Shown: in pieces, positions 1 through 63,000 of the stretch
Layout: every line of letters starts with the position of its first letter
Numbering within the stretch: the first letter of the stretch is position 1
From: a virus
Taxonomy: Duplodnaviria > Caudoviricetes
Reading direction: 5' to 3' (one strand)
Length of the DNA stretch: 63,000 nucleotides
Virus record (IMG/VR): IMGVR_UViG_3300042938_000809
Coordinates: 1 to 63,000 of that record
The notes under the pieces: model-generated
Database searches by the model: none
The model's input: the letters and a program-made list of their open reading frames with translations, nothing else
Told to the model about the DNA's origin: nothing
Position numbers and translations under genes: made by a program

Positions 1-760
1 GGTAATCAAGGACTTGAGAGGGATCAACGTTGTCAACTAATTTCTTAATTGCTTGCTTTTTTAATTCTGAAACTCTTACATAAGCACTATTTCCTTCGAT
101 ATTTAACAGTTCAGCAATAGTAATCGCAGAATGTTTATCGCAGTCTAATCCGTAACTTAATCTTAAAACTTCAAACTCACGATGATCTAAATGCCTCTTG
201 AGCAAACCAGTTAAGTAGATATTCATAAGATCTATATTATAACCTTCAGATAAATCTGGAATCTGATATAACATGTTATCCTCGTTATCGTCTTCCATCT
301 GTTCATCTACACTTAAGAATATTGAATTAAAGAACATTGCAACCATTTCATGGCTTTGGCCATTATCTTTACGCATTTCAATTAACTTATGTTCTGGAAG
401 TTTTATGCTGCCTCGATATATGTCTATATCTCTTCTAATTGAGCCTTTAATTCTTTTTGATAGAAATGACTTAATAGTTTTTTCTGGATCATTAGAATCA
501 GTTATTGTTGGCCATTCAATTTTATCAACGGCTAGTATTAAACCTTTAGACCCTGCTTGAATAAGATCTGTAATATCTAAGACTCCTGATGCTTGTGTAG
601 TTGTTGAAAACTTTTTAGCGATATTTTCCACTAAAGGAAGAAACTTAACGATCAATTCATCTCTAGTATATTCGTCCCAGAATTTACCATCGATGCGACC
701 CATTGACTGTTTAATATCTTCCTTATAGCGGATATAATTTTGTATATTATAACTTTTCAT
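1..760 (-). CDS. RNA polymerase sigma70-family factor (3' end runs off the window)
   Basis: Manual translation from ATG 760 (not in ORF track): MKSYNIQNYIRY...RDELIVKFLPLVENIAKKF...DLIQAGSKGLILAVDKI (region 2) ...LDHREFEVLRLSYGL...SAITIAELLNI...RVSELKKQAIKKL (region 4 HTH). Confidence 0.88.
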   Translation of the reverse strand, partial: MKSYNIQNYIRYKEDIKQSMGRIDGKFWDEYTRDELIVKFLPLVENIAKKFSTTTQASGVLDITDLIQAGSKGLILAVDKIEWPTITDSNDPEKTIKSFLSKRIKGSIRRDIDIYRGSIKLPEHKLIEMRKDNGQSHEMVAMFFNSIFLSVDEQMEDDNEDNMLYQIPDLSEGYNIDLMNIYLTGLLKRHLDHREFEVLRLSYGLDCDKHSAITIAELLNIEGNSAYVRVSELKKQAIKKLVDNVDPSQVLDY

Positions 761-3255: not shown

Positions 3256-3439
3256 GTCTACCTATTGCCGCAAAATAAAATTCATCATTATCAAATACTA
3301 TTGCGGGGACACCGTCTTTTGAGTAGTGCCTTCTTAAGTATAATTCTATACTGTCCAATGTATTTTTTACTTCATTAGGGTCTTCTATTGTCATAGACAA
3401 TAACCCTTTAAATGTTAAACTGTAAGTTTCTTCTTTCAT
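3236..3439 (-). CDS. hypothetical protein
   Basis: ORF track; coupled to its neighbours. Confidence 0.6.
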   Translation of the reverse strand: MKEETYSLTFKGLLSMTIEDPNEVKNTLDSIELYLRRHYSKDGVPAIVFDNDEFYFAAIGRRDETDS

Positions 3440-4113
3440 ATTACTAATATATTACCATTACTACTTAATTTTCCAAATTTTCTATCAGTTACTACTGATC
3501 CATTACTAAAAAATGTATCACATATACTTAACTTCTGCAGTCCAGCATTAATAATGTCGCCGCCATTGTGTATATGACCAAATAAATGATATGCGGGTTG
3601 AACTTCTAATAACTTATTAAGCAAAGACTTATCACCGCAACATTCTAATTGATGATCACGGTTTTCAGACTTGTCTAGAATGCCTTTAGGAGGCCCATGC
3701 GTAACGACAATGTCGGTATTATCGTGTATAGCATCGCGCCAGAATCGGTCAAGTTTATTACGGTCTCTCATAAAAGACCAGTTGCCAAAGTTAGGAGTAT
3801 AAGGAGAACCAAATATTTTAAGACCTTCAATGGTAACATAATCATTTTCTAGGTATATAATACCGTTGTCTTCAAAATCTTTTTTAGTTACTAATTTCTT
3901 TTCAATGCTAGAGTCATGGTTACCAGCTACATATATTTTATACTTAGGCGATAACTCTTTATACCAGTCAATGAATTCTCTAACTTCAGGTTCATTATTG
4001 TATGGATCTCTAGGATTACTGCAATCGCCAGAATGTATTACCATATCAATTGCTATAGGTACTTTTAATAAGTCGTGATACGTATGAGTATCGGAGATGT
4101 GCCATATTTTCAT
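3436..4113 (-). CDS. calcineurin-like metallophosphoesterase
   Basis: Motifs DTH, GD, GNHD, THGPP, FGHIH. Confidence 0.92.
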   Translation of the reverse strand: MKIWHISDTHTYHDLLKVPIAIDMVIHSGDCSNPRDPYNNEPEVREFIDWYKELSPKYKIYVAGNHDSSIEKKLVTKKDFEDNGIIYLENDYVTIEGLKIFGSPYTPNFGNWSFMRDRNKLDRFWRDAIHDNTDIVVTHGPPKGILDKSENRDHQLECCGDKSLLNKLLEVQPAYHLFGHIHNGGDIINAGLQKLSICDTFFSNGSVVTDRKFGKLSSNGNILVI

Positions 4114-4300: not shown

Positions 4301-4491
4301 AATCTATTATCTTTTTCTATTAATTCTAATATATAACTCCATACTTTTTGTTCAAATATATCTCGCTTTTTTAATTGCTCTTGTCTATCTGTATCCATTT
4401 TCCAATATACATCATTATCATTAACTATTCCTGTCATTGATGCTAATTTAGCCCATACTTTATAAGCTGCTGCTTCTTTAATTTCTTGCAT
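4297..4491 (-). CDS. hypothetical protein
   Basis: ORF track; operon-like packing. Confidence 0.6.
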   Translation of the reverse strand: MQEIKEAAAYKVWAKLASMTGIVNDNDVYWKMDTDRQEQLKKRDIFEQKVWSYILELIEKDNRL

Positions 4492-4963
4492 AATTATGTC
4501 TTGTTATTATTTGTTCATTACTATTTCGTACGTTAACTTTTTCAGCTTCGTAATAATTCCAGTAAGCAGTTACACTATCGCCAGGAACTTTGTATTCATC
4601 AGGCATACATTGAGGCATTGGCGTAGCACCGATGTTTAACATACCACCGGGTACATTACTTAGTACATCTTCACACTTTGTTATAGTTAAATGCTTTTTT
4701 CCATAACGTTTAGTATACTCTTCGCCAAGCGCTAACATGTGAAAGTATAACCACGCATAATTGTCAGCGGATTCACGTGCCCATATAGCTGACGGATGAT
4801 TTTTATGGGTTGGCTTGTAAGGTACATTTGCATCATCGCCATCTAATACGTGGTGTGCAGTACATAATAATTGAGCGGATTCGAGGATCATTTTTACAAC
4901 GTGTTTATTGTACATCATTGTAGCCGCTTTGTCAGGGTCTTTGTCTAAATAAAAAATGTTCAT
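4478..4963 (-). CDS. pyrimidine-dimer DNA glycosylase / endonuclease V-like protein
   Basis: MNIFYLD...KHVVKMILESAQLLCTAH...YKPTHKNHPSAIWARES..NY.WL; start set at ATG 4963 because the longer ORF overlaps a promoter and the tmRNA. Confidence 0.72.
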   Translation of the reverse strand: MNIFYLDKDPDKAATMMYNKHVVKMILESAQLLCTAHHVLDGDDANVPYKPTHKNHPSAIWARESADNYAWLYFHMLALGEEYTKRYGKKHLTITKCEDVLSNVPGGMLNIGATPMPQCMPDEYKVPGDSVTAYWNYYEAEKVNVRNSNEQIITRHNYARN

Positions 4964-5031
4964 AGTTTGTTTGTTTATTATATTATCAAAGTTAATTCGT
5001 ATCCGGACTGTAAGACCGTGTATAGCATTAG

Positions 5032-5345
5032 TGGAGGCGGGGAGATTCGAACTCCCGTCCAAACAACTTTGGTTATTACAATTTATACAGCTTATGGGGT
5101 TAACTAGTCAGTTAACGTTTCCACCACTCTGTTTAATCTAACAGAGAAATCTTTCGATGCTACGCCGCTATAAGCCCTTTGACATCTGCGTTAATCAATG
5201 AATACACTTTGCTCATGTTAGCGTTAACTTGGTCAACATCTAACGAAATTACTTGGTTGTCATTTATTAAATTCACCTTAGTTTACAGTTATCTCTCTGG
5301 CTGATTGTAATAATTAGTGGTTGCCTGTCAAATCCAGTCGCCCCC
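5032..5345 (-). ncRNA. ssrA: tmRNA (transfer-messenger RNA)
   Basis: 5' GGGGGCGACTGGATTTGACAG; 3' GGGAGTTCGAATCTCCCCGCCTCCA; acceptor stem with G3:U Ala identity pair; internal tag frame 5261-5160 ending LIAA-stop. Confidence 0.93.
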
Positions 5346-5423: not shown

Positions 5424-6032
5424 TTAATGTATGATTAACCCTACTTTGTTAGTCTTGTTAAACCATTTAGTAGCATATAAATCAATCTCGCTTGTATCTA
5501 CATATCCGAACTTAAGTAGTTCAATACTATTACTGAAGATTCTTGCATGACGATCAACTTCTGTATTGATCATGTGCTTTTGTTTACCAGACATACTATA
5601 AATGATGTCGTAATTTTCAGGTAAAGTTATTTCTTTAAGCAACTCAACCATGTTGGTGTAACTGTAAAACCTAACGTCGGGATTAGCTTTAGCAATTTCA
5701 ATCCACTTTTGTAGATATTCTCTGCTGTAGTAATCGCCGGAGTCGTGAACACGCACATATTGTGGTTTTCGCTTTTGAATTTCCGCATTCATCTCAACTA
5801 TGAAATCTGATGTTTTGGTTAATTCATATCGTCTCTCGAACGCTGGTTTTACATTACTCCATGTATACGCGCTTTTTCTAGCATAACAGAACTTAATACA
5901 TTCGTCAGCCATTGGGCAAGTTAATTTTCCTGTAATTGATTTGTATGCAGGTATTCCGAAGTTGAATACTTTAAGACCTAGTACTTTACTAGTCTTTTTT
6001 AATTTTGAATTCTGTGTTAATAAGTTAGCCAT
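5424..6032 (-). CDS. GP88-like protein with a radical-SAM-like Cys cluster
   Basis: TCPMADECIKFCYA, RVHDSGD, FYSYT motifs; start set at ATG 6032 downstream of the promoter at 6051-6083. Confidence 0.7.
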   Translation of the reverse strand: MANLLTQNSKLKKTSKVLGLKVFNFGIPAYKSITGKLTCPMADECIKFCYARKSAYTWSNVKPAFERRYELTKTSDFIVEMNAEIQKRKPQYVRVHDSGDYYSREYLQKWIEIAKANPDVRFYSYTNMVELLKEITLPENYDIIYSMSGKQKHMINTEVDRHARIFSNSIELLKFGYVDTSEIDLYATKWFNKTNKVGLIIH

Positions 6033-6090
6033 AGTTGTTTTGTTTATTATATTATCAATTATTATTCGTATTCGTTTTGTAATAGTATTT

Positions 6091-6163
6091 GGGGATCCGG
6101 CAGGAATCGAACCTGCATCGCTCAAGTTATTATGAGTCATGTTGCCATTTTCACTACGTATCC
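6091..6163 (-). ncRNA. tRNA-like RNA with non-canonical anticodon arm
   Basis: Acceptor GGATACG/CGGATCC (1 mismatch), T arm GCAGG-TTCGATT-CCTGC, D loop with GG, anticodon arm CTCA-TAATAACT-TGAG (8-nt loop). Confidence 0.7.
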
Positions 6164-33278: not shown

Positions 33279-34682
33279 ATGGCAGGTACATTTGCAACCG
33301 CACCGAGTACGCTAGCTAACCTAGCGCATTTAACTCCACGTCCAGTAAAAGGACTTTTTGGGGACAACTATCTTAGCTTATCAGCTATGAATTTTACACA
33401 ACAATTTTTACCAGACGTTTACGAAAAAGAAGTAGAGCGTTATGGTAATCGTACAATCTCAGGTTTCTTGCGTATGGCTGGAGCTGAATTGCCCTTGGCA
33501 TCAGATCAAGCGGTATGGTCAGAACAAGGAAGATTGCACATCGCTTACGAGGGATTAGTAACTCCTACTGGAGGGGCTACTATTACTTTGCCGTCAGGAC
33601 ATTTGCTTGGGGCTGGTATGACAATCGTTGTATCTAAAGGGCCTGTTACTGTAAAAGCTAACGTAATTAGCGTAACAACTACATTAGCGAACATCGTTTG
33701 TTATGGATCTAGCGCAACATTACCACCCGGTCTTACCGATACTACAGATGTTAAACTTTTCGTATTTGGTTCTGAATATGCAAAAGGATCTTCTTTAGCA
33801 GGTAACTCTATCGATGCATCCTTCTCAACATTCTCTAACCAACCAATTATCTTAAGAGATAAATATAGAGTTAGCGGTTCTGACGTTGCTCAAATTGGAT
33901 GGGTAGAAGTAACTACTGAAGCTGGTGGATCTGGATACTTATGGTATTTAAAATCAGAGCATGAAGCTAGAATCCGTTTCGAGGATCAATTAGAAATGTC
34001 TATGATTGAGGCTGAAGTTTCTACTGCTGGTATTACTAATGCTGCAGGTAAAACCTTAAAAGGTACTCAAGGTTTATTTGACGCTATCTCTACTAGAGGT
34101 TTGGTATTCAACGATCCTGACTTTGGCGCTGCTGGTGGTGCTGGTCTTGTTGACTTTGATACTATCCTACAAGAGCTTGACAAACAAGGAGCTATTGAAG
34201 AAAATATGATGTTCTTGAACCGTGCCACTGCACTACAGATTGACAATATGCTTGCTGGTCAAAATACTTACGGCGCTGGTGGTACATCTTATGGTGTATT
34301 TGATAACTCTCAAGATATGGCTTTGAACTTAGGTTTCTCTGGATTCAGAAGAGGTTCTTATGACTTCTACAAAACTGACTGGAAATACTTAAACGATTCA
34401 ACGACTCGTGGTAATATTAATGATGTGTCAGGTGTAATCACCCCTGCTGGAACATCTACAGTTTACGACCAACAATTAGGTCAAAACATTTCACGTCCTT
34501 TCTTACACATCCGTTACAGAGCTTCTGAAGCAGATGATAGACGTTTGAAATCTTGGGTTACTGGTTCTGTTGGAGGTAACTTCACAAATGATACGGACGA
34601 AATGAATGTTCACTTCTTATCTGAAAGAACAATCTGCGTTCAAGCTGCAAATAACTTTGTAATGTTGAAAAAAACAACATAA
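33279..34682 (+). CDS. major capsid protein
   Basis: 467 aa after the scaffold, strong codon bias, followed by a terminator; T.GL motif. Confidence 0.82.
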   Translation: MAGTFATAPSTLANLAHLTPRPVKGLFGDNYLSLSAMNFTQQFLPDVYEKEVERYGNRTISGFLRMAGAELPLASDQAVWSEQGRLHIAYEGLVTPTGGATITLPSGHLLGAGMTIVVSKGPVTVKANVISVTTTLANIVCYGSSATLPPGLTDTTDVKLFVFGSEYAKGSSLAGNSIDASFSTFSNQPIILRDKYRVSGSDVAQIGWVEVTTEAGGSGYLWYLKSEHEARIRFEDQLEMSMIEAEVSTAGITNAAGKTLKGTQGLFDAISTRGLVFNDPDFGAAGGAGLVDFDTILQELDKQGAIEENMMFLNRATALQIDNMLAGQNTYGAGGTSYGVFDNSQDMALNLGFSGFRRGSYDFYKTDWKYLNDSTTRGNINDVSGVITPAGTSTVYDQQLGQNISRPFLHIRYRASEADDRRLKSWVTGSVGGNFTNDTDEMNVHFLSERTICVQAANNFVMLKKTT

Positions 34683-56210: not shown

Positions 56211-57929
56211 TTATCCGTCACAGGATAAACAGCCTTCATCCATTGCTTTGGCAGCTATATCACCACGTAAAACAGATTCAGTCCTCATATAGTATAAAGT
56301 CTTGACTCCTTTTTTCCATGCATCCATGTGCACCTTATTAAGCCATTTAGGGGTTGCTTCACTTGGAAAAGCTAAATTCAAACTAACTGCTTGGTCAATA
56401 TACTGCTGTCTCAAGCCTGCTTGATTAACTAATTCAAGTTGATTAATTTCTTTAAACGTTTTAAAAACCTCTTTAGCTGAAACTCCGTGAGAACAGAATA
56501 TATCCTCAAGTTCATCAACGCCCTGGACCGACCCACCGTCTGCCAATATTTTATTCCAAATTTCATCTGTGTTTAATTTATGTTTCTTTAATAACTTAAC
56601 TAACGTAGGATTTTTCCTGATGAATGTTCCTTTCGCGCTCTGCTCAGTGAATACGTTTGCAGCCCACGGTTCAATCCCTGCTGACACGTTTCCAGAAAGT
56701 TTGCTATTGCTAACAGTAGGAGCAAGGGCCCGCAAATGAGTGTTGCGCATACCAGTGCCGACACACCATAAAGGCTCACCGTAAACCTCAGCCAAAGCGC
56801 GACTAGCGCGTTCACTTTCAATTTTGATTTGTGAAAAGATTTTTCTTGTTTCGTATTGCGACAACAGTCCTTCGAACGGCAACCCTTTTTCTTGCAGGTA
56901 TGTATGCCAGCCAAGGACTCCAAGACCAAGTGCTCTTCCTTTCGTCGCTGAACGGACCGAATTTTCAAATCCGCGTAAGCCTTTTGCTCTTTGTATAAAT
57001 TCCTCCATGACTCCATCAAGGAACCATACTGAGTCATAAATGAGATTAGTGTCTTTCCACTCTTCATATTTTGCTAAATTTAATGATGATAAACAACACA
57101 CAAAACTATGTGTTTCGTCTGTATGTAATGTTATTTCACTACATATATTAGTCATGTGAACTTTTAATCCGTTGGTTTTATATGCCTGCGGATTTGCCTT
57201 ATTAACATTTCCTTTAAACATGATATACGGTTCGCCAGTCGCTTTTCGTTTTCTAAGAAGTTTACTCCATCTATCTCTAGCTTTAGCATCTCCTTGTTCA
57301 AGTTTTCGCATAAACTTATCACCAACAACTGCGCATTGATGTAAATTAAGCGATTGTCTATTGACATCTCCTTTGGGTTCGCGGATTTCAATCCATTCCT
57401 CAAAATCATTGTGTTCAATGTTGATGTTAACTGATGCTGCTCCTCTCCTAACAGAACCTTGATTTGTTGCAAGGATTGTTGAATCATAGATTTTACAAAA
57501 TGGCACGACTCCGTCTGATGTTCCATTACCTGTTATTTTAGCGCCAGCGGGTCTGATCTGATTAATACCGATACCAACTCCACCGCCGTGCTTAGCGAGT
57601 AGCATCATCTCTAAATTTTTTGTACCGATGTCTTGAATACTATCTGCAACATCAATTCCAAAACAACTAATAGGCAACCCTCGATCTGTGCCTGTGTTAG
57701 ACAACACTGGGGAGGCTAAACATAGCCAGCCATTCCAAATGTATTCAAAAAACTTTTCAGCTAGTTCTGGCTTGTATAAACGCCTTGCTACGGTTTTGGC
57801 TACACGCATGTAAGCGTCTTTTGGTGTCTCGTCAAATATTAAATAACCACCTGTTATTGTTTTCTTATATACATCTGTATCTCCCCATATAGGATAGTCT
57901 ACTCCTTTAACCCATTCATTATTCCACAT
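56211..57929 (-). CDS. nrdA: class I ribonucleotide reductase alpha subunit (short, no ATP cone)
   Basis: ASPVLSN, ISCF, GGGVG, TNICSEI, APTVSNS, DQAVSLN, TLYY, C-terminal CLSC. Confidence 0.95.
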   Translation of the reverse strand: MWNNEWVKGVDYPIWGDTDVYKKTITGGYLIFDETPKDAYMRVAKTVARRLYKPELAEKFFEYIWNGWLCLASPVLSNTGTDRGLPISCFGIDVADSIQDIGTKNLEMMLLAKHGGGVGIGINQIRPAGAKITGNGTSDGVVPFCKIYDSTILATNQGSVRRGAASVNINIEHNDFEEWIEIREPKGDVNRQSLNLHQCAVVGDKFMRKLEQGDAKARDRWSKLLRKRKATGEPYIMFKGNVNKANPQAYKTNGLKVHMTNICSEITLHTDETHSFVCCLSSLNLAKYEEWKDTNLIYDSVWFLDGVMEEFIQRAKGLRGFENSVRSATKGRALGLGVLGWHTYLQEKGLPFEGLLSQYETRKIFSQIKIESERASRALAEVYGEPLWCVGTGMRNTHLRALAPTVSNSKLSGNVSAGIEPWAANVFTEQSAKGTFIRKNPTLVKLLKKHKLNTDEIWNKILADGGSVQGVDELEDIFCSHGVSAKEVFKTFKEINQLELVNQAGLRQQYIDQAVSLNLAFPSEATPKWLNKVHMDAWKKGVKTLYYMRTESVLRGDIAAKAMDEGCLSCDG

Positions 57930-57946
57930 CAATTTATTATTTTTAA

Positions 57947-58915
57947 TTACCAAATATTTTCATAATCCTCGCCTTCACCTGCTTTGCTATAATCCGTAGA
58001 TCTTATTGCGAAGAAATCCGTGTGCGTATGCCCTCCGGTTAAATGGTAAAACCAATCTAAGTTTGCCGCAGCTTCTTTATTAAACGGGAAATAAGATCCA
58101 AGATCTATATAACCTAATTCAACTAGTTTTTCATTTGTACGTTTTTTTATAAACTGTATTAAATCATAAGACTTAATACCCTCAATCTCTCCTCCTTCAA
58201 ACATCTTATCAATATACTTAATTTCGAGAGCAACCATTGTTTCAGCAGCTTTTATTATATCTTCTCTACATAAATGTAATAATTGATCATTTTCTCTGCA
58301 CATATCGCGGAATAACTTACAACCCATTTTGCTGTGTAACGATTCATCACGTACACTCCATTTCATTTGTTGCCCAATACCCTTTAATAGATTCCTCATC
58401 TGAAAAGAATACAATACAGCAAATGCAGAATAAAGACTAACCCCTTCAGCGAAAGCGCTAAAAACAGCAAGAGACTTGCCAATCCCAGTATGTGATCTGC
58501 CTTCATAACCAACCAGATTGTTAAATCTTTCAGCTGTTGCAGGCTCGTGTAAAAAAGCTTTGTAATCTTCAAGTCCAAGTGTTTCATTTAAGTAGCTATA
58601 AGCAACAGCGTGAATAGTTTCTTGTGATCCAAACATCATTGCCATTTGTTGTATCTCATGTTTAGGAAACCAACCAACAACTTTCTGTGTCCAATAATCT
58701 GAAACTGCGCATTCTGTTTGAGCAAAACCTAGTAGAATATTTCCTACCAGGTTCTTTTCTTTTTCATTTAATTTTTCATTCCAATCTTTTAAATCTCCTG
58801 ACATACTAATCTCAGTATGCAACCAAAAGGCCTGCGCTTGTTTAAGCCAACCCTCTGTATAATAATCGGGATATTCAAATGGTTTGTATTCTATTCTTTT
58901 ATCAAATAATCCCAT
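57947..58915 (-). CDS. nrdB: class I ribonucleotide reductase beta subunit
   Basis: FW...E, ETIH..AYS, EGVSLYSAF, RDESLH, DFFA.R.T.Y. Confidence 0.95.
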   Translation of the reverse strand: MGLFDKRIEYKPFEYPDYYTEGWLKQAQAFWLHTEISMSGDLKDWNEKLNEKEKNLVGNILLGFAQTECAVSDYWTQKVVGWFPKHEIQQMAMMFGSQETIHAVAYSYLNETLGLEDYKAFLHEPATAERFNNLVGYEGRSHTGIGKSLAVFSAFAEGVSLYSAFAVLYSFQMRNLLKGIGQQMKWSVRDESLHSKMGCKLFRDMCRENDQLLHLCREDIIKAAETMVALEIKYIDKMFEGGEIEGIKSYDLIQFIKKRTNEKLVELGYIDLGSYFPFNKEAAANLDWFYHLTGGHTHTDFFAIRSTDYSKAGEGEDYENIW

Positions 58916-59253: not shown

Positions 59254-59654
59254 TCTGCTTGATTTTGTGGTTTATATAATGTTCTATGATCATTGTTTTG
59301 CATCATCCATTGTTTAAATAATTTCCATCGCAATGGAAAAGAATCGTTAGCTCTACCTTTTGTTTCAATTATAAAATCTTTACCAATGAAGTCTGGCGTA
59401 TATTTTAGGTTAAGTATTTTTTTGTCGCCACGGTTCTCAAAGCCTCCTTTACCATTGGATTGTCTCTCAAAACTTTTGTTCGGAAATTGAAAACTAGGGA
59501 CAAGTTCAAAAGTATGGGATTCATATTGTGCTTTTATATCGTGTTCTTTTAATACTTTGTACATATACTTTTCAAGACCTGAAGCAAAGGTAATGCCATC
59601 ATACATTACCTTTTTTGCTACTACAGGACCTTTCTTTCTGCTAATCTTTTTCAT
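59208..59654 (-). CDS. PD-(D/E)XK endonuclease (T7 endonuclease I / Holliday junction resolvase-like)
   Basis: DGITFASGLE, YE, YTPDF, IIETKG. Confidence 0.8.
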   Translation of the reverse strand: MKKISRKKGPVVAKKVMYDGITFASGLEKYMYKVLKEHDIKAQYESHTFELVPSFQFPNKSFERQSNGKGGFENRGDKKILNLKYTPDFIGKDFIIETKGRANDSFPLRWKLFKQWMMQNNDHRTLYKPQNQAECDKTVQLILENREG

Positions 59655-59947
59655 TAATTGTAATTACCATATTTGTCTTTTTTGACATCAACTAATGTGT
59701 AATTAACTTCAGCGCGTTTAATCATTGCTTCTTGTTCAAGATCGGTTAATTCTTCTTTTAAACGTTGCATGTATAGCACAGCATCCATTAACTCTTCTTG
59801 TAAATGATTAGCCCACGCAAACAAGTCTGACTTATCATCTCGCAATGTTTTGCCGTATTTTGCAAAGCCAACATCTGATCTACTTACAAATTTAGCCACG
59901 ACTGATTCAACTACTGGATCTCTAAATTGGATTGTTACTTCTTTCAT
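59654..59947 (-). CDS. small all-alpha NTP-pyrophosphatase-like protein
   Basis: RS.VG..KYG.TL...W..HLQEELMDAVLY (EExxD helix). Confidence 0.5.
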   Translation of the reverse strand: MKEVTIQFRDPVVESVVAKFVSRSDVGFAKYGKTLRDDKSDLFAWANHLQEELMDAVLYMQRLKEELTDLEQEAMIKRAEVNYTLVDVKKDKYGNYN

Positions 59948-60825
59948 TATAGTGTTGTTGTATTTAATTGATTAGTGCCTGTTACATTTAATTGATTAAT
60001 ACCTGTTGAGCCTGTGTGATTAGTACCTACCCAAGGGCCGTCTTTAACAAATGTACCATTTCGCATTGAACCCTTACGATCTTTAATTACATTATAAGCT
60101 AATAAAACACAGTCTTCAACTTTTAATCCTTCTAATGCAGCTAGATTTGTTAATACAACCATACAATCGCCAATAGCATCTATGAATTCAACTTGATCTT
60201 TTTTCAATATTGCTTTTCCTAATTCTCCAAACTCTTCTGATAATTTAAGAAATTGAGTTTTAACATCTCCATCTTTATATATACCTTTTTCATCTGCCCA
60301 TAACCTAATTAAATCGTACACGTTAGGGACTTCTGTTTTTGTTTTTGCTTTCGGTTCTATTAACGTTTTAGCAAATTCTTCTAATGCTTTATTATATACG
60401 TATGTTCTACCTGGATTGAACATTGATACGTTTGCATTCTTTACAATCCATTCTACTATTGCGGGAGTTAATGTATAACTGCCAAAGCCTGTTTTAAATT
60501 GTATTCCTAAGTTGTCAAACAAGTTACCCTTCAGTTTATTAATTGGACATGGAAACGTTGTTGTCTGTTCTGTTACATTTAATACCATTTTATTTTTTTG
60601 TTTATCGATTAAATTTTTATATGATTGTCTGTCTATCTTATAGCCGTAGATAAGTTGAAGTTCTAATTCTCGCGCTGATATATAATCTATATCATTACTT
60701 GAATCTAGAACTTCGTATTCTCCGGTATGGTATCCTTGTTGGATTGTTAATCTATCTTTAAGATTACGTGTTACTCCAATTTTTTTACCAAATATATGAT
60801 ATAAATAATAAATTGTTTTTGTCAT
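59947..60825 (-). CDS. GIY-YIG-like N-terminus fused to a MazG-like nucleotide pyrophosphohydrolase
   Basis: YYLYHI...KIGVT..L..R; C-terminal WA..KGI...Q..KL.EE.GEL...DAIGD..V.L...AY..IKDRKG. Confidence 0.75.
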   Translation of the reverse strand: MTKTIYYLYHIFGKKIGVTRNLKDRLTIQQGYHTGEYEVLDSSNDIDYISARELELQLIYGYKIDRQSYKNLIDKQKNKMVLNVTEQTTTFPCPINKLKGNLFDNLGIQFKTGFGSYTLTPAIVEWIVKNANVSMFNPGRTYVYNKALEEFAKTLIEPKAKTKTEVPNVYDLIRLWADEKGIYKDGDVKTQFLKLSEEFGELGKAILKKDQVEFIDAIGDCMVVLTNLAALEGLKVEDCVLLAYNVIKDRKGSMRNGTFVKDGPWVGTNHTGSTGINQLNVTGTNQLNTTTL

Positions 60826-60833
60826 AGTGTTAC

Positions 60834-61601
60834 TTATATAGCTACTGTCGCTGTTATTACTGGACCATGTTTGTATGCAATTAATTCTAATAGATTACCA
60901 TCTAACTTATATTTAGGCAATTCAAAGTTATCTTGCTTTAAGTACTCATGAACAGCCTCTAATTGGTTATTGTATATGTGCGCATCTACTATCTGTATAT
61001 CCAAAACATTAGCATCTAATCCTGTGTAGTCAGCTACATATAATAGTATTCTAGTAAACAAAGCAACATCATAAGGTATACCTAAGAATAGATCGCCAGA
61101 TCTTTGCACAACAAACATATTAAGTTTGCCTTTGTCTACAAAAAATTGAAAATACAAATAACAAGGAGGCAAAGCCATCTGATCTTGCTGAGCTGGATTC
61201 CACAATGATATGATATGCCTACGGCTATCTGGATCAGTCCTTAATGATTTTATTACGTTTTGCATTTGATCTATATTTTGATTGTTAAAATTGCGCATTT
61301 GATGCCCATACACAGGACCAAGATCTCCATTCTCATCTGCCCAAGCATCCCATATTTTTACTCCAGCATCTTTAAACATTTTAATATTTGTTTGTCCAGT
61401 CATAAACCATTCAAACTCCGTATTAAATATTTTTTGTGACATTTTTCTACCTGTTATTATAGGAAAGTATTTTGAAACATTGATGCTTAAGGACGCATTG
61501 AAAATAGAACTGCAGCCTACTTTAGTACGATCTAATCTATGAGTACCTTTTGTTAAACATTCCCATAATAATTCTTTATATTGTGATTCATAATTTGCCA
61601 T
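60834..61601 (-). CDS. thyA: thymidylate synthase family protein (Asp at the Asn177 position; possibly dCMP-specific)
   Basis: DRT.VG, IWDAW, LGPVYG.Q.R, DSRR, LPPC, QRSGDLFLGIPYD, HIY. Confidence 0.9.
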   Translation of the reverse strand: MANYESQYKELLWECLTKGTHRLDRTKVGCSSIFNASLSINVSKYFPIITGRKMSQKIFNTEFEWFMTGQTNIKMFKDAGVKIWDAWADENGDLGPVYGHQMRNFNNQNIDQMQNVIKSLRTDPDSRRHIISLWNPAQQDQMALPPCYLYFQFFVDKGKLNMFVVQRSGDLFLGIPYDVALFTRILLYVADYTGLDANVLDIQIVDAHIYNNQLEAVHEYLKQDNFELPKYKLDGNLLELIAYKHGPVITATVAI

Positions 61602-61602
61602 A

Positions 61603-61941
61603 CTAAAATAGTTTTAAGTCTTCGTTAATTGGTTTTTCTTTTTTAGTTTGTTTTTCAACAACTTTTTTTTCTTCTTTTATTTCATTCTTGGTGTACTTAT
61701 TGTAGTAATAACAATAGTATTTATATATCTGTTTCCATATCTCCACTTTGCCATAAGCTTCAGGACTGGTTCGGTTTCTTCCATTGATATTTATCATTAC
61801 ATACCATTCAGTATTACTCTTTGCAAATGGTCCAATGTATATACCATTTCTTATGCCCCACTCTCTAGCGTCGCATTCACTTAGTTTGCATGAGTAATTA
61901 CCCATGTCAACACCACCTTTCTTTTTAGTTCCACTACCCAT
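61603..61941 (-). CDS. hypothetical protein
   Basis: ORF track. Confidence 0.65.
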   Translation of the reverse strand: MGSGTKKKGGVDMGNYSCKLSECDAREWGIRNGIYIGPFAKSNTEWYVMININGRNRTSPEAYGKVEIWKQIYKYYCYYYNKYTKNEIKEEKKVVEKQTKKEKPINEDLKLF

Positions 61942-63000
61942 TTATTCCCAAGGCATTTTATCATTCTCACTAACTGCTGGAACATGAGGCAGGAAACAAC
62001 CTGAGGCTGGTTCCCATTTAAAATGACATTCAGCACCATTCTCACCTAGGTTTTGAAACTTACATTTTAATACTTTCACTTTGACAGTCTTGTCTTCATA
62101 GTTTCTATGAACTAGTAACCCATGATAAGAAGCATCATACCATTCACCCCCTCCTTTAATATTGTACATGGTAGGTTCTTCAATATTGCCTTTTGAATCT
62201 TTGTACATTTTAGTGGGGTGAGCTACAACCATAACTAATACATCGTATTTTTTAGCAAAGATTTCAATCTTACTTAAGTATTCCAATGTATACACATTAA
62301 CGTCCCCTGATGAATCATTGTCCCTAACCTTGTTAAATGGATCTATAACAAGACATTTGATACCTTTACGTTTAACTAATTCAGCACCTTTTCTTAATAC
62401 AGAATCCAATGTATAACGTTCCATGTCAATAAAGAAATAATTATCATTGACATGATCCGCTATTTGATCCCATTTTTCAGTTTTAATATCTTCAACTCCT
62501 GGCATGCCTTGCCATGTTTTTCTCATCAGTTTGTGAGCATGCAAATATGTGGGTGTATTCTCAGGAGAAGCATAAGCAGTCTTCCAACCGTAGTTAGCAT
62601 TGTAACCTATAACCATTTGGTCAACAAAGTCAGACTTTCCAGAACTAGGTATACCAGTAACAGTGATGAACTGACCCGTATAAGTAGAGAAAATACTATC
62701 GAAATTCTCAAGCCCAACTTGGAATCCAGGTTTAAACCCATTGCGCACAAAATCCGTGACTTCATCTTCTATGTCTCTAAAGGTTGTTACATTTTCTAAC
62801 GGCACAGGTTTAGCTCTACTAATTCTATTAGATAAAGCTTCCTTGCCGTATTTAATTAAGTATTCATTAGCATCCTTACAATCATCGAAAGTTGCAATAT
62901 AACAAGTTTCTGATCCTAATCTCCTAACTAACTCAGACTGCAAGGCTTGCCCGGCAGCGTCTGAATCAACTGCTATTATTATCTTTTGTTTGTCTTCAAA
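61942..63000 (-). CDS. T7 gp4/Twinkle-like primase-helicase (5' part outside the window)
   Basis: TOPRIM end AVDSDAAG...KDANE, Walker A GIPSSGKS, LVIDP, VAHP. Confidence 0.9.
   Translation of the reverse strand, partial: FEDKQKIIIAVDSDAAGQALQSELVRRLGSETCYIATFDDCKDANEYLIKYGKEALSNRISRAKPVPLENVTTFRDIEDEVTDFVRNGFKPGFQVGLENFDSIFSTYTGQFITVTGIPSSGKSDFVDQMVIGYNANYGWKTAYASPENTPTYLHAHKLMRKTWQGMPGVEDIKTEKWDQIADHVNDNYFFIDMERYTLDSVLRKGAELVKRKGIKCLVIDPFNKVRDNDSSGDVNVYTLEYLSKIEIFAKKYDVLVMVVAHPTKMYKDSKGNIEEPTMYNIKGGGEWYDASYHGLLVHRNYEDKTVKVKVLKCKFQNLGENGAECHFKWEPASGCFLPHVPAVSENDKMPWE

Follow-up and report, generated by a model that had tools for sequence, protein, structure and literature searches.

A near-canonical ThyA homologue with aspartate at the pyrimidine-specificity position in uncultured freshwater phages: a candidate dCMP C5-methyltransferase

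That exchanging Asn177 of Escherichia coli ThyA for Asp switches the enzyme from deoxyuridine monophosphate (dUMP) to deoxycytidine monophosphate (dCMP) is textbook enzymology, and a phage gene that carries this exchange on an otherwise ordinary ThyA scaffold raises the question of whether its product still makes thymidylate (dTMP) or serves instead to modify cytosine. The gene considered here lies in a 63,000-nucleotide stretch of DNA from a virus of the Caudoviricetes (IMG/VR record IMGVR_UViG_3300042938_000809, positions 1 to 63,000; this whole stretch is called the window below), which is the entire record, is rated 98% complete and has about 35% G+C (about 65% A+T). The reading that we favour, to which we give somewhat better than an even chance on the sequence evidence, is that the gene would encode a folate-dependent dCMP C5-methyltransferase on an almost unaltered ThyA scaffold, feeding 5-methylcytosine (5mC) into the phage DNA.

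Active-site residues of the ThyA homologue

The encoded protein is a member of the ThyA family: it matches PF00303 (Thymidylat_synt) over nearly its full length at 1.4e-75 (254.3 bits against a cut-off of 24.3), phrog_160 ('thymidylate synthase') at 3.5e-83 in a PHROG scan, and solved thymidylate synthases in a PDB sequence search, with 6auj the best at 9.6e-64 and the E. coli ThyA entries at about 2e-54. The reference for residue assignments was E. coli K-12 ThyA from NC_000913, aligned with MAFFT, and its numbering was checked against the letters of that sequence. In this alignment QRSGDLFLGIPYDVALF of the phage protein and QRSCDVFLGLPFNIASY of E. coli ThyA run side by side without a gap, and Asp178 falls on Asn177. 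The original prediction had drawn this gap-free match from the letters alone, along with a change of the PCH motif to PCY, retention of the IWxxW, GPVYG and HIY motifs, and an Asp in the T4 dCMP hydroxymethylase; the alignment and the DNA (GAT for Asp178, TGT TAT for Cys-Tyr) bear it out on all of these points, and the Xp12 enzyme and RB69 gp48 have Asp in the same column too. The two residues expected of a canonical dTMP-forming ThyA, Asn177, which recognises O4 and N3-H of uracil, and His147, are thus replaced by Asp178 and Tyr148. Retained, in E. coli numbering, are the catalytic Cys146, Arg21, Glu58, Tyr94, Arg126/127, Arg166, Ser167, Asp169, His207 and Tyr209, both phosphate-binding Arg pairs, and Trp80, Trp83 and Leu143; the hydride-transfer apparatus is represented in the query by Leu144, Trp87, Asp170 and a Val-Ala-Ile tail. 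Overall identity in the alignment is 40% to E. coli ThyA, 24% to the Xp12 enzyme, 23% to T4 gp42 and 20% to RB69 gp48.

The same residues recur throughout the close homologues. Of 8,000 candidates scored in a word-indexed search, 7,980 reached E<=1e-10, and the best 120 of these, 73-98% identical to the query and including three fragments of 202 aa, were examined. The patterns QRSGD-x-FLG-x-PYD and LPPCYLY, which hold Asp178 and Tyr148, stand in all 120 of these best listed homologues, and Asp178 is therefore neither chance nor a sequencing error. A residue table was drawn up for the 117 of the 120 that are at least 250 aa long, and in all 117 the positions R21, E58, I79, W80, W83, Y94, R126, R127, L143, C146, Q165, R166, S167, D169, L172, G173, H207, Y209, V262 and A263 are unchanged from E. 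coli ThyA, while four departures, H147Y, C168G, F176Y and N177D, are equally fixed. The last tail residue, position 264, varies between Ile (81) and Val (36), and the remaining changes among the residues compared are minor (E82A, K48R, and H51 to S or F).

In the wider family the residue at 177 goes together with that at 147. When 50%-identity representatives were searched exhaustively, 15,580 proteins reached E<=0.001, and the best 150 of these were classed: 112 have Asn at position 177, 32 have Asp and six have another residue or a gap. Position 147 is His in every one of the 112 Asn-type proteins, whereas the Asp-type proteins have Tyr (13), Pro (9), His (9) or Leu (1), so that His147 is lost in 23 of 32 on one side and in none of 112 on the other. 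In the MetaGPA study, the two largest differences in conservation between viral contigs with modified cytosine and those with canonical cytosine are described at positions 177 and 147 (PMC8670742); the co-variation seen here reproduces that result, as the source presents it, on independent sequence data.

A FastTree tree took in the 107 representatives of 235-340 aa (the other 43 of the 150 are fragments or fusions), five close homologues, the query and six references. The query falls within an all-Asp clade of nine rows with an SH-like support of 96, and the tree calls for at least eight changes between Asp and Asn, at least two of which are forced by well-supported branches. The enzyme of this clade occurs in none of the catalogued phages: the best ThyA matches in a phage collection are at most 42% identical to the query, and the three checked among them, those of Correa, Magritte and Y10, are of the Asn/His type.

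The MazG-fold neighbour and the conserved module

The gene order around the ThyA homologue is primase-helicase, a 112-aa open reading frame (ORF), the ThyA homologue, a MazG fusion, a 97-aa ORF, a DUF1064 nuclease, and the alpha and beta subunits of ribonucleotide reductase (RNR). From the ThyA homologue to DUF1064 this order is kept in 21 of 21 related IMG/VR loci (65-97% ThyA identity), always with the MazG gene directly downstream of the enzyme gene, and the 112-aa ORF is found in 20 of the 21, the one locus without it being cut at its end. The RNR genes follow the module only in the four closest of the 21 relatives (L002-L022, fetched flanks); the flanks of the others hold different genes, and RNR thus appears to be a recent addition or loss beside a stable core module.

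The MazG assignment of the fusion, whose C-terminal 100 residues are of the all-alpha nucleoside triphosphate pyrophosphatase type, comes from Pfam matches to PRA-PH at 2.9e-4 (21.6 bits against a cut-off of 21.3) and to MazG at 1.3e-3, from phrog_1992 at 1.2e-35, and from six acidic residues that are invariant in 19 aligned homologues. The AlphaFold model (mean pLDDT 72.7) finds as its best Foldseek neighbours Sulfolobus MazG, PRA-PH, the human and mouse dCTPase DCTPP1 and cyanophage S-2L MazZ, none of them at E<=0.001; the match to 1vmg has a TM score of 0.75 on the target, likewise with E above 0.001. A PDB sequence search with the fusion gave one match, at E 0.039, which is not usable. Residues 1-150 resemble T5orf172/GIY-YIG-like phage proteins (Atlas 0.97; the family is present in 11-12% of best-cluster members), which we take as a lead only. 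The fusion itself recurs as frames of 260-300 aa beside Asp-type ThyA genes in seven other viral records.

How far a MazG-type neighbour goes with Asp at position 177 was examined in other viruses. Three single-protein scans yielded 84 further viral loci with ThyA homologues, classed against E. coli ThyA as 21 Asp-type and 63 Asn-type, and 50 records were searched for PRA-PH (PF01503), 34 of them Asn-type and 16 of them Asp-type and new to the analysis, with giant-virus bins and the remaining Asn-type loci left out. A match at E<=0.01 occurs somewhere in 15 of the 16 Asp-type and seven of the 34 Asn-type records. Within 1.3 kb of the ThyA gene, a PRA-PH/MazG match is present in 14 of 16 Asp-type records as against none of 34 Asn-type records, with one of 34 if the distance is extended to 1.6 kb; Fisher's p for 14/16 against 1/34 is 1.8e-9, a value inflated by relatedness, for which it is uncorrected. 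The MazG frames beside Asp-type ThyA genes fall into at least five size classes or architectures (112, 137-170, 243 and 260-300 aa among them), and several lineages therefore contribute to the linkage. Since a dUTPase for the general supply of dUMP ought to occur beside Asn-type enzymes as well, the pattern fits a feeder from dCTP to dCMP, and suggests, by analogy with the logic of T4 gp56 and gp42, that the MazG-fold enzyme is a dCTP pyrophosphatase supplying dCMP; we infer the dCTP specificity of the domain only from this linkage to Asp-type ThyA. For modified contigs from metaviromes, PRA-PH is also reported as one of the five domains that co-localise most with deaminase and ThyA genes (bioRxiv 10.1101/2024.12.05.627091).

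A PF00383 deaminase is encoded in three of the 16 other Asp-type records, in two of them beside ThyA and MazG and in the third beside MazG, about 12 kb from ThyA. Two other Asp-type lineages, L033 (G007) and L090 (G019), hold a MazG-like gene, an Asp177 ThyA and a dCMP-family deaminase within about 1 kb, as in the published Xp12/mSCD-B5 arrangement, which the lineage of the window does not have.

The 97-aa protein of the module was considered as a second nucleoside triphosphate pyrophosphatase, and this was rejected; its AlphaFold model is a two-helix hairpin (pLDDT 71.8) with a best Foldseek E of 2.2. An Atlas lead to YosH_C scored 0.77, which is chance level, and a PDB sequence search gave E values of 0.62 or worse.

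Reaction product and competing explanations

All the sequence-level evidence gathered supports the dCMP specificity that the original prediction had put forward, namely that Asp177 is fixed, that loss of His147 co-varies with it and that MazG is linked to Asp-type and not to Asn-type enzymes, and this agrees with the published use of the residue as a marker. Two products had been suggested, and between them the published signatures allow a choice. A hydroxymethylase is described as having a water-activating Asp or Glu three residues before the catalytic Cys (Asp145 in T4, where D145N makes no 5-hydroxymethyl-dCMP), a Ser two residues before the equivalent of Tyr94, Val in place of Trp83 and no C-terminal tail, while ThyA itself relies on Leu143, Trp83 and its tail to close the site for hydride transfer (PMC6400193). 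The 5-hydroxy-dCMP synthases of RB69 and DLP3 are reported to have Glu at position 143 (PMC13326640). The query has Leu144 before the Cys, as do all 117 full-length homologues, Pro rather than Ser or Thr two residues before Tyr94 (GPVYG), and the Val-Ala-Ile tail; it pairs Asp177 with Leu143, unlike RB69 gp48 and DLP3 gp80, which pair N177D with L143E. What would be looked for in a 5-methyl-dCMP (5mdCMP) synthase is present, namely Asp177, no acidic residue at -3 from the Cys, and a preserved hydride-transfer apparatus. With three points of the hydroxymethylase signature failed, 5-hydroxymethyl-dCMP is therefore disfavoured and 5-methyl-dCMP favoured, the predicted reaction being a reductive methylation.

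In the mechanism that we propose, the protonated Asp would pair with N3 and N4 of cytosine, so that Cys147 would attack dCMP and not dUMP; the methylene of methylenetetrahydrofolate would be transferred and then reduced by the cofactor hydride in a sealed hydrophobic pocket, giving 5-methyl-dCMP and dihydrofolate. The downstream MazG-fold enzyme would hydrolyse dCTP to dCMP, at once feeding the methylase and draining the canonical dCTP pool. As neither a kinase nor a polymerase gene of the phage was found, incorporation of 5-methyl-dC nucleotides into phage DNA, and with it protection from restriction, would depend on host kinases and the host replicase. It also counts in favour of the methylase reading that the 98%-complete record shows no other ThyA, no ThyX and no C5 DNA methyltransferase.

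Xp12 is reported to replace all of its C by 5mC, its homologue gave 5-methyldeoxycytidine (5mdC) in E. coli, and so did five of seven Asp-type homologues from metaviromes (bioRxiv 10.1101/2024.12.05.627091); the single substitutions N177D in E. coli ThyA and N229D in Lactobacillus casei thymidylate synthase are summarised as conferring a preference for dCMP and production of 5mdCMP (PMC8670742). It is this engineered N177D design on a canonical ThyA that the query resembles, to which the natural clade adds the fixed H147Y, C168G and F176Y. The Xp12 homologue (QNN97214 in MT664984) shares with it the ThyA fold, the catalytic Cys, Asp177, Tyr176 and the loss of His147, but has Asn143, Phe83 and Pro147 and no Val-Ala-Ile tail where the query has Leu, Trp, Tyr and the tail; Xp12 also pairs its gene with a dCMP-family deaminase and a dihydrofolate reductase, whereas this phage pairs it with the MazG fusion and has neither. 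The Asp-type homologues of MetaGPA share the 177/147 signature and the co-localised PRA-PH/MazG and are also linked to 5mC-selective deaminases; those tested were chosen for a neighbouring deaminase, which the query lineage is without. T4 gp42 and RB69 gp48 resemble the query in the residue matching Asp177 and in the catalytic Cys, and they work on mononucleotides ahead of replication, as is proposed for the query; they differ at 143 (Asp or Glu) and at 83 (Val or Ile), and they lack the C-terminal tail. Asn177Asp is a known marker of cytosine-modifying ThyA homologues, from Xp12 and MetaGPA, and has already been used to predict 5mdC or 5-hydroxymethyldeoxycytidine products in phage genomes (PMC8670742, PMC13326640, bioRxiv 10.1101/2024.12.05.627091). 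What is particular here is a large uncultured freshwater clade, undescribed in the open-access literature that we found, in which the enzyme resembles bona fide ThyA much more than it does any characterised cytosine-modifying homologue and in which the companion set is minimal, consisting of MazG only.

Several observations weigh against a 5mC-containing genome made in this way. Identity of the query to the Xp12 enzyme, the single classical example of a dCMP methylase from nature, is only 24%, and the tree does not place the two together: Xp12, T4 gp42 and RB69 gp48 sit on separate long branches that leave the deep placement unsure. With its Asn143, its Phe83 and its missing tail, the Xp12 enzyme produces 5mdC and yet departs from the position-143 product rule, which is therefore imperfect and excludes hydroxymethylases better than it defines methylases. 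The query scores above the NCBI equivalog cut-off of TIGR03284 for thymidylate synthase (222.6 against 108.35), a cut-off missed by Xp12 (99.6) and T4 gp42 (30.6), but it falls below TIGR03283 and below all six NF-series equivalog cut-offs (NF002497, for example, 259.1 against 327). The MazG fusion shows no detectable similarity to the T4 gp56 dCTPase (best E = 1.0), and its Foldseek E values are weak. Characterised systems use a phage deoxynucleoside monophosphate kinase, and the published in vivo assays are described as co-expressing T4 gp1 (bioRxiv 10.1101/2024.12.05.627091); none is recognised in this window, where Walker-A/P-loop kinase motifs outside the helicase are limited to incidental matches in the 97-aa protein and the two giant ORFs. 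There is no PF00383 or MafB19 deaminase in the window and no deaminase in five relatives (four of them 100% complete, two with terminal repeats), and a phage of 65% A+T without dCMP deaminase would rely on its host for all dTTP. Palindrome counts, set against maximal-order Markov expectations over the whole window, show CATATG (0 observed, 12.9 expected, z -4.2) and GATATC (3 observed, 15.4 expected, z -3.7) to be avoided, so that not every site containing C has been freed from restriction pressure.

The other palindromes are less marked, with GGCC and CATG mildly avoided (observed/expected 0.70 and 0.73) and GATC not avoided (1.11), and avoidance as a proxy for protective modification is ambiguous. 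We take NdeI and EcoRV to belong to the enzymes with adenine-specific cognate methylases, an assumption from which we draw no conclusion. Xp12 DNA is reported to resist about 90% of 218 type II enzymes, those with adenine-specific cognate methylases still cutting it (PMC7653180).

The missing functions are the main weakness of the 5mC-genome reading, and it is for this reason that two of its rivals are kept. One is that the protein is still a working thymidylate synthase converting dUMP to dTMP, or an enzyme of dual specificity, with Asp177 merely tolerated and the MazG neighbour a dUTPase supplying dUMP. Its 40% identity to E. coli ThyA, the retention of all but four of the catalytic and folate residues, its passing of the TIGR03284 cut-off and the RNR genes adjoining the module in the closest relatives are all as this would have it, and it is the sole thymidylate synthase candidate of the genome. 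Yet Asn177 is the major determinant of dUMP specificity and Asp mutants are summarised as becoming dCMP methylases (PMC8670742), Asp is fixed in all 120 listed homologues, His147 is lost in Asp-type proteins only, and a general supply of dUMP would not predict a MazG gene close to Asp-type enzymes and absent beside Asn-type ones; we regard this alternative as unlikely. Unlikely as well, in our estimate, is a shunt from dCTP to dTTP, in which dCMP would be methylated but the 5-methyl-dCMP, or its triphosphate, deaminated by the host, leaving little or no 5mC in virion DNA. A genome of about 65% A+T without another route to dTMP could profit from it, Xp12 is said to deaminate part of its 5mdC nucleotide pool for dTTP and Asp-type homologues to be often linked to deaminases (bioRxiv 10.1101/2024.12.05.627091), and three of the 16 other Asp-type records encode one. 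The lack of a deaminase in the window and in five relatives means that a host enzyme would be needed, however, a MazG that drains dCTP would favour incorporation of the modified nucleotide, and in Xp12 the shunt coexists with full replacement by 5mC, according to the same preprint.

We consider it very unlikely that a dCMP enzyme of this kind installs a different C5 group, whether hydroxymethyl as T4 gp42 does or hydroxyl as RB69 gp48 does, as the start of hypermodification. Asp177 is common to both of those enzymes and Xp12 is an exception to the position-143 rule, but the protein follows the methylating type in its Leu143, its Trp83, the Pro two residues before Tyr94 and its C-terminal tail, identity to T4 gp42 and RB69 gp48 is 23% and 20%, and Pfam and PHROG scans of 32 window ORFs, the larger ones apart from the two giant ORFs, found no glycosyl-, carbamoyl- or other tailoring transferase.

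If the protein is a dCMP methylase, as we favour, the lineage would be a pared-down version of the known systems that leaves it to the host to phosphorylate 5mdCMP, to polymerise DNA and to provide all dTTP, barring a phage protein not recognised as doing so. No family A or B DNA polymerase was found in the window or in four complete relatives (G001, G003, G004 and G005), and replication presumably uses the host polymerase or an unrecognised enzyme; a primase-helicase, an Erf recombinase and an exonuclease are encoded, with RNR in some members. We tentatively put forward the broader proposal, which is possible but to our minds falls somewhat short of an even chance, that widespread uncultured lake-water podophages of 60-68 kb, probably of Flavobacteriia, replace C by 5mC by means of a two-gene pre-replicative module, consisting of a MazG-type dCTPase and a near-canonical Asn177Asp ThyA, together with host kinases and replicase, and that 5mC phage DNA is perhaps much commoner in freshwater viromes than has been recognised. 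Such genomes would be annotated as ordinary because the enzyme passes the standard 'thymidylate synthase' equivalog cut-off, and 'thymidylate synthase' is indeed the JGI label for the enzyme of the clade. If this is true, an abundant freshwater phage lineage would have fully or largely 5mC-substituted DNA from only two phage genes, pre-replicative cytosine methylation would extend beyond phages of the Xp12/PaMx74 type, and the system would be able to run on host kinases and a host polymerase. A systematic annotation error, in the JGI label and the passing of TIGR03284, would be flagged, and there would be consequences for restriction of viromes, for bisulfite or enzymatic-conversion workflows and for nanopore basecalling. 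The clade would also offer enzymology a useful, natural and near-minimal example of the Asn177Asp specificity switch.

Genome, relatives and habitat

Coordinates of features in the 63,000-nucleotide window
Feature	Coordinates	Strand	Evidence or remark
Sigma-factor-like protein	2-760	-	phrog_351 1.5e-18
Calcineurin-like phosphoesterase	3436-4113	-	early region
T4 endonuclease V-like pyrimidine-dimer glycosylase domain	4478-5062	-	PF03013 8.5e-6; phrog_624 4.6e-53
GP88-family protein	5424-6140	-	PF17338 1.3e-37
Cpn60/GroEL-like chaperonin, 530 aa	14068-15660	+	PF00118 5.1e-53
Capsid protein	33279-34682		weak sub-threshold Crass_capsid match, E 5.4e-4
Giant ORF, 1954 aa	37284-43148	+	late block
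Giant ORF, 2608 aa	48304-56130	+	late block
Class I RNR, alpha (56211-57953) and beta (57947-58915)	56211-58915	-	
97-aa helical conserved protein in module	59654-59947	-	21/21 loci; no Pfam, PDB or fold match
292-aa fusion: N-terminal T5orf172/GIY-YIG-like region (lead only), C-terminal MazG-fold nucleoside triphosphate pyrophosphatase	59947-60825	-	Pfam, PHROG, Foldseek
MazG-like domain of the fusion, about residues 165-262	60040-60333	-	invariant E197, E198, E201, E213, D216, D220
ThyA-family enzyme, 255 aa; predicted dCMP C5-methyltransferase	60834-61601	-	PF00303, PDB matches, alignment, residue table
Val-Ala-Ile C-terminal tail (E. coli ThyA 262-264)	60837-60845	-	residue table
GAT codon, Asp178 (E. 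coli Asn177, pyrimidine-specificity position)	61068-61070	-	DNA read, alignment
TGT (61163-61161), catalytic Cys147, and TAT (61160-61158), Tyr148 (E. coli Cys146, His147)	61158-61163	-	
TTG, Leu144 (E. coli Leu143), three codons before Cys	61170-61172	-	Asp/Glu in hydroxymethylases and 5-hydroxylases
112-aa conserved protein directly upstream of the enzyme gene	61603-61941	-	no Pfam, PHROG or NCBIfam match
Toprim/DnaB-like primase-helicase, C-terminal 352 aa, ended by record end	61942-63000	-	phrog_239 8.5e-60; full 569-aa form in relative L002

A plus-strand block from 13 to 56 kb holds the chaperonin, the large terminase, the portal, the capsid protein and the two giant ORFs, and the early and replication genes lie in minus-strand blocks. 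A PDB sequence search with the GP88-family protein gave E 0.44, which is not usable. A relative of 68,280 b that is 97% identical (L002) shows that the two ends of the record adjoin in a permuted genome and that about 3.2 kb is missing between them (window 1-760 and 61942-63000; L002 1395-5559). In the relative this interval encodes an Erf recombinase of 183 aa, a PDDEXK exonuclease of 243 aa, a 106-aa ORF and the N-terminal 217 aa of the primase-helicase, none of which bears on nucleotide modification.

The related phage group has genomes of 60-68 kb, and the clade comprises at least 120 listed protein clusters at 73% identity or more, on contigs of up to about 68 kb. When catalogued phages are compared by large terminase, MW202828 (63%), an uncultured podovirus from spring water, comes nearest, ahead of the Flavobacterium Elemovirus phages (45%), and neither has a PF00303 gene; phages of Cellulophaga, Tenacibaculum and Maribacter come next, and the host class is probably Flavobacteriia. 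As to habitat, 24 sequencing runs from 12 studies were found, runs with a share of the sequence of 0.19 or less not being counted as evidence. A marine origin was entertained and dropped, as the three runs with large shares (0.90, 0.70 and 0.32) are all lake-water metagenomes.

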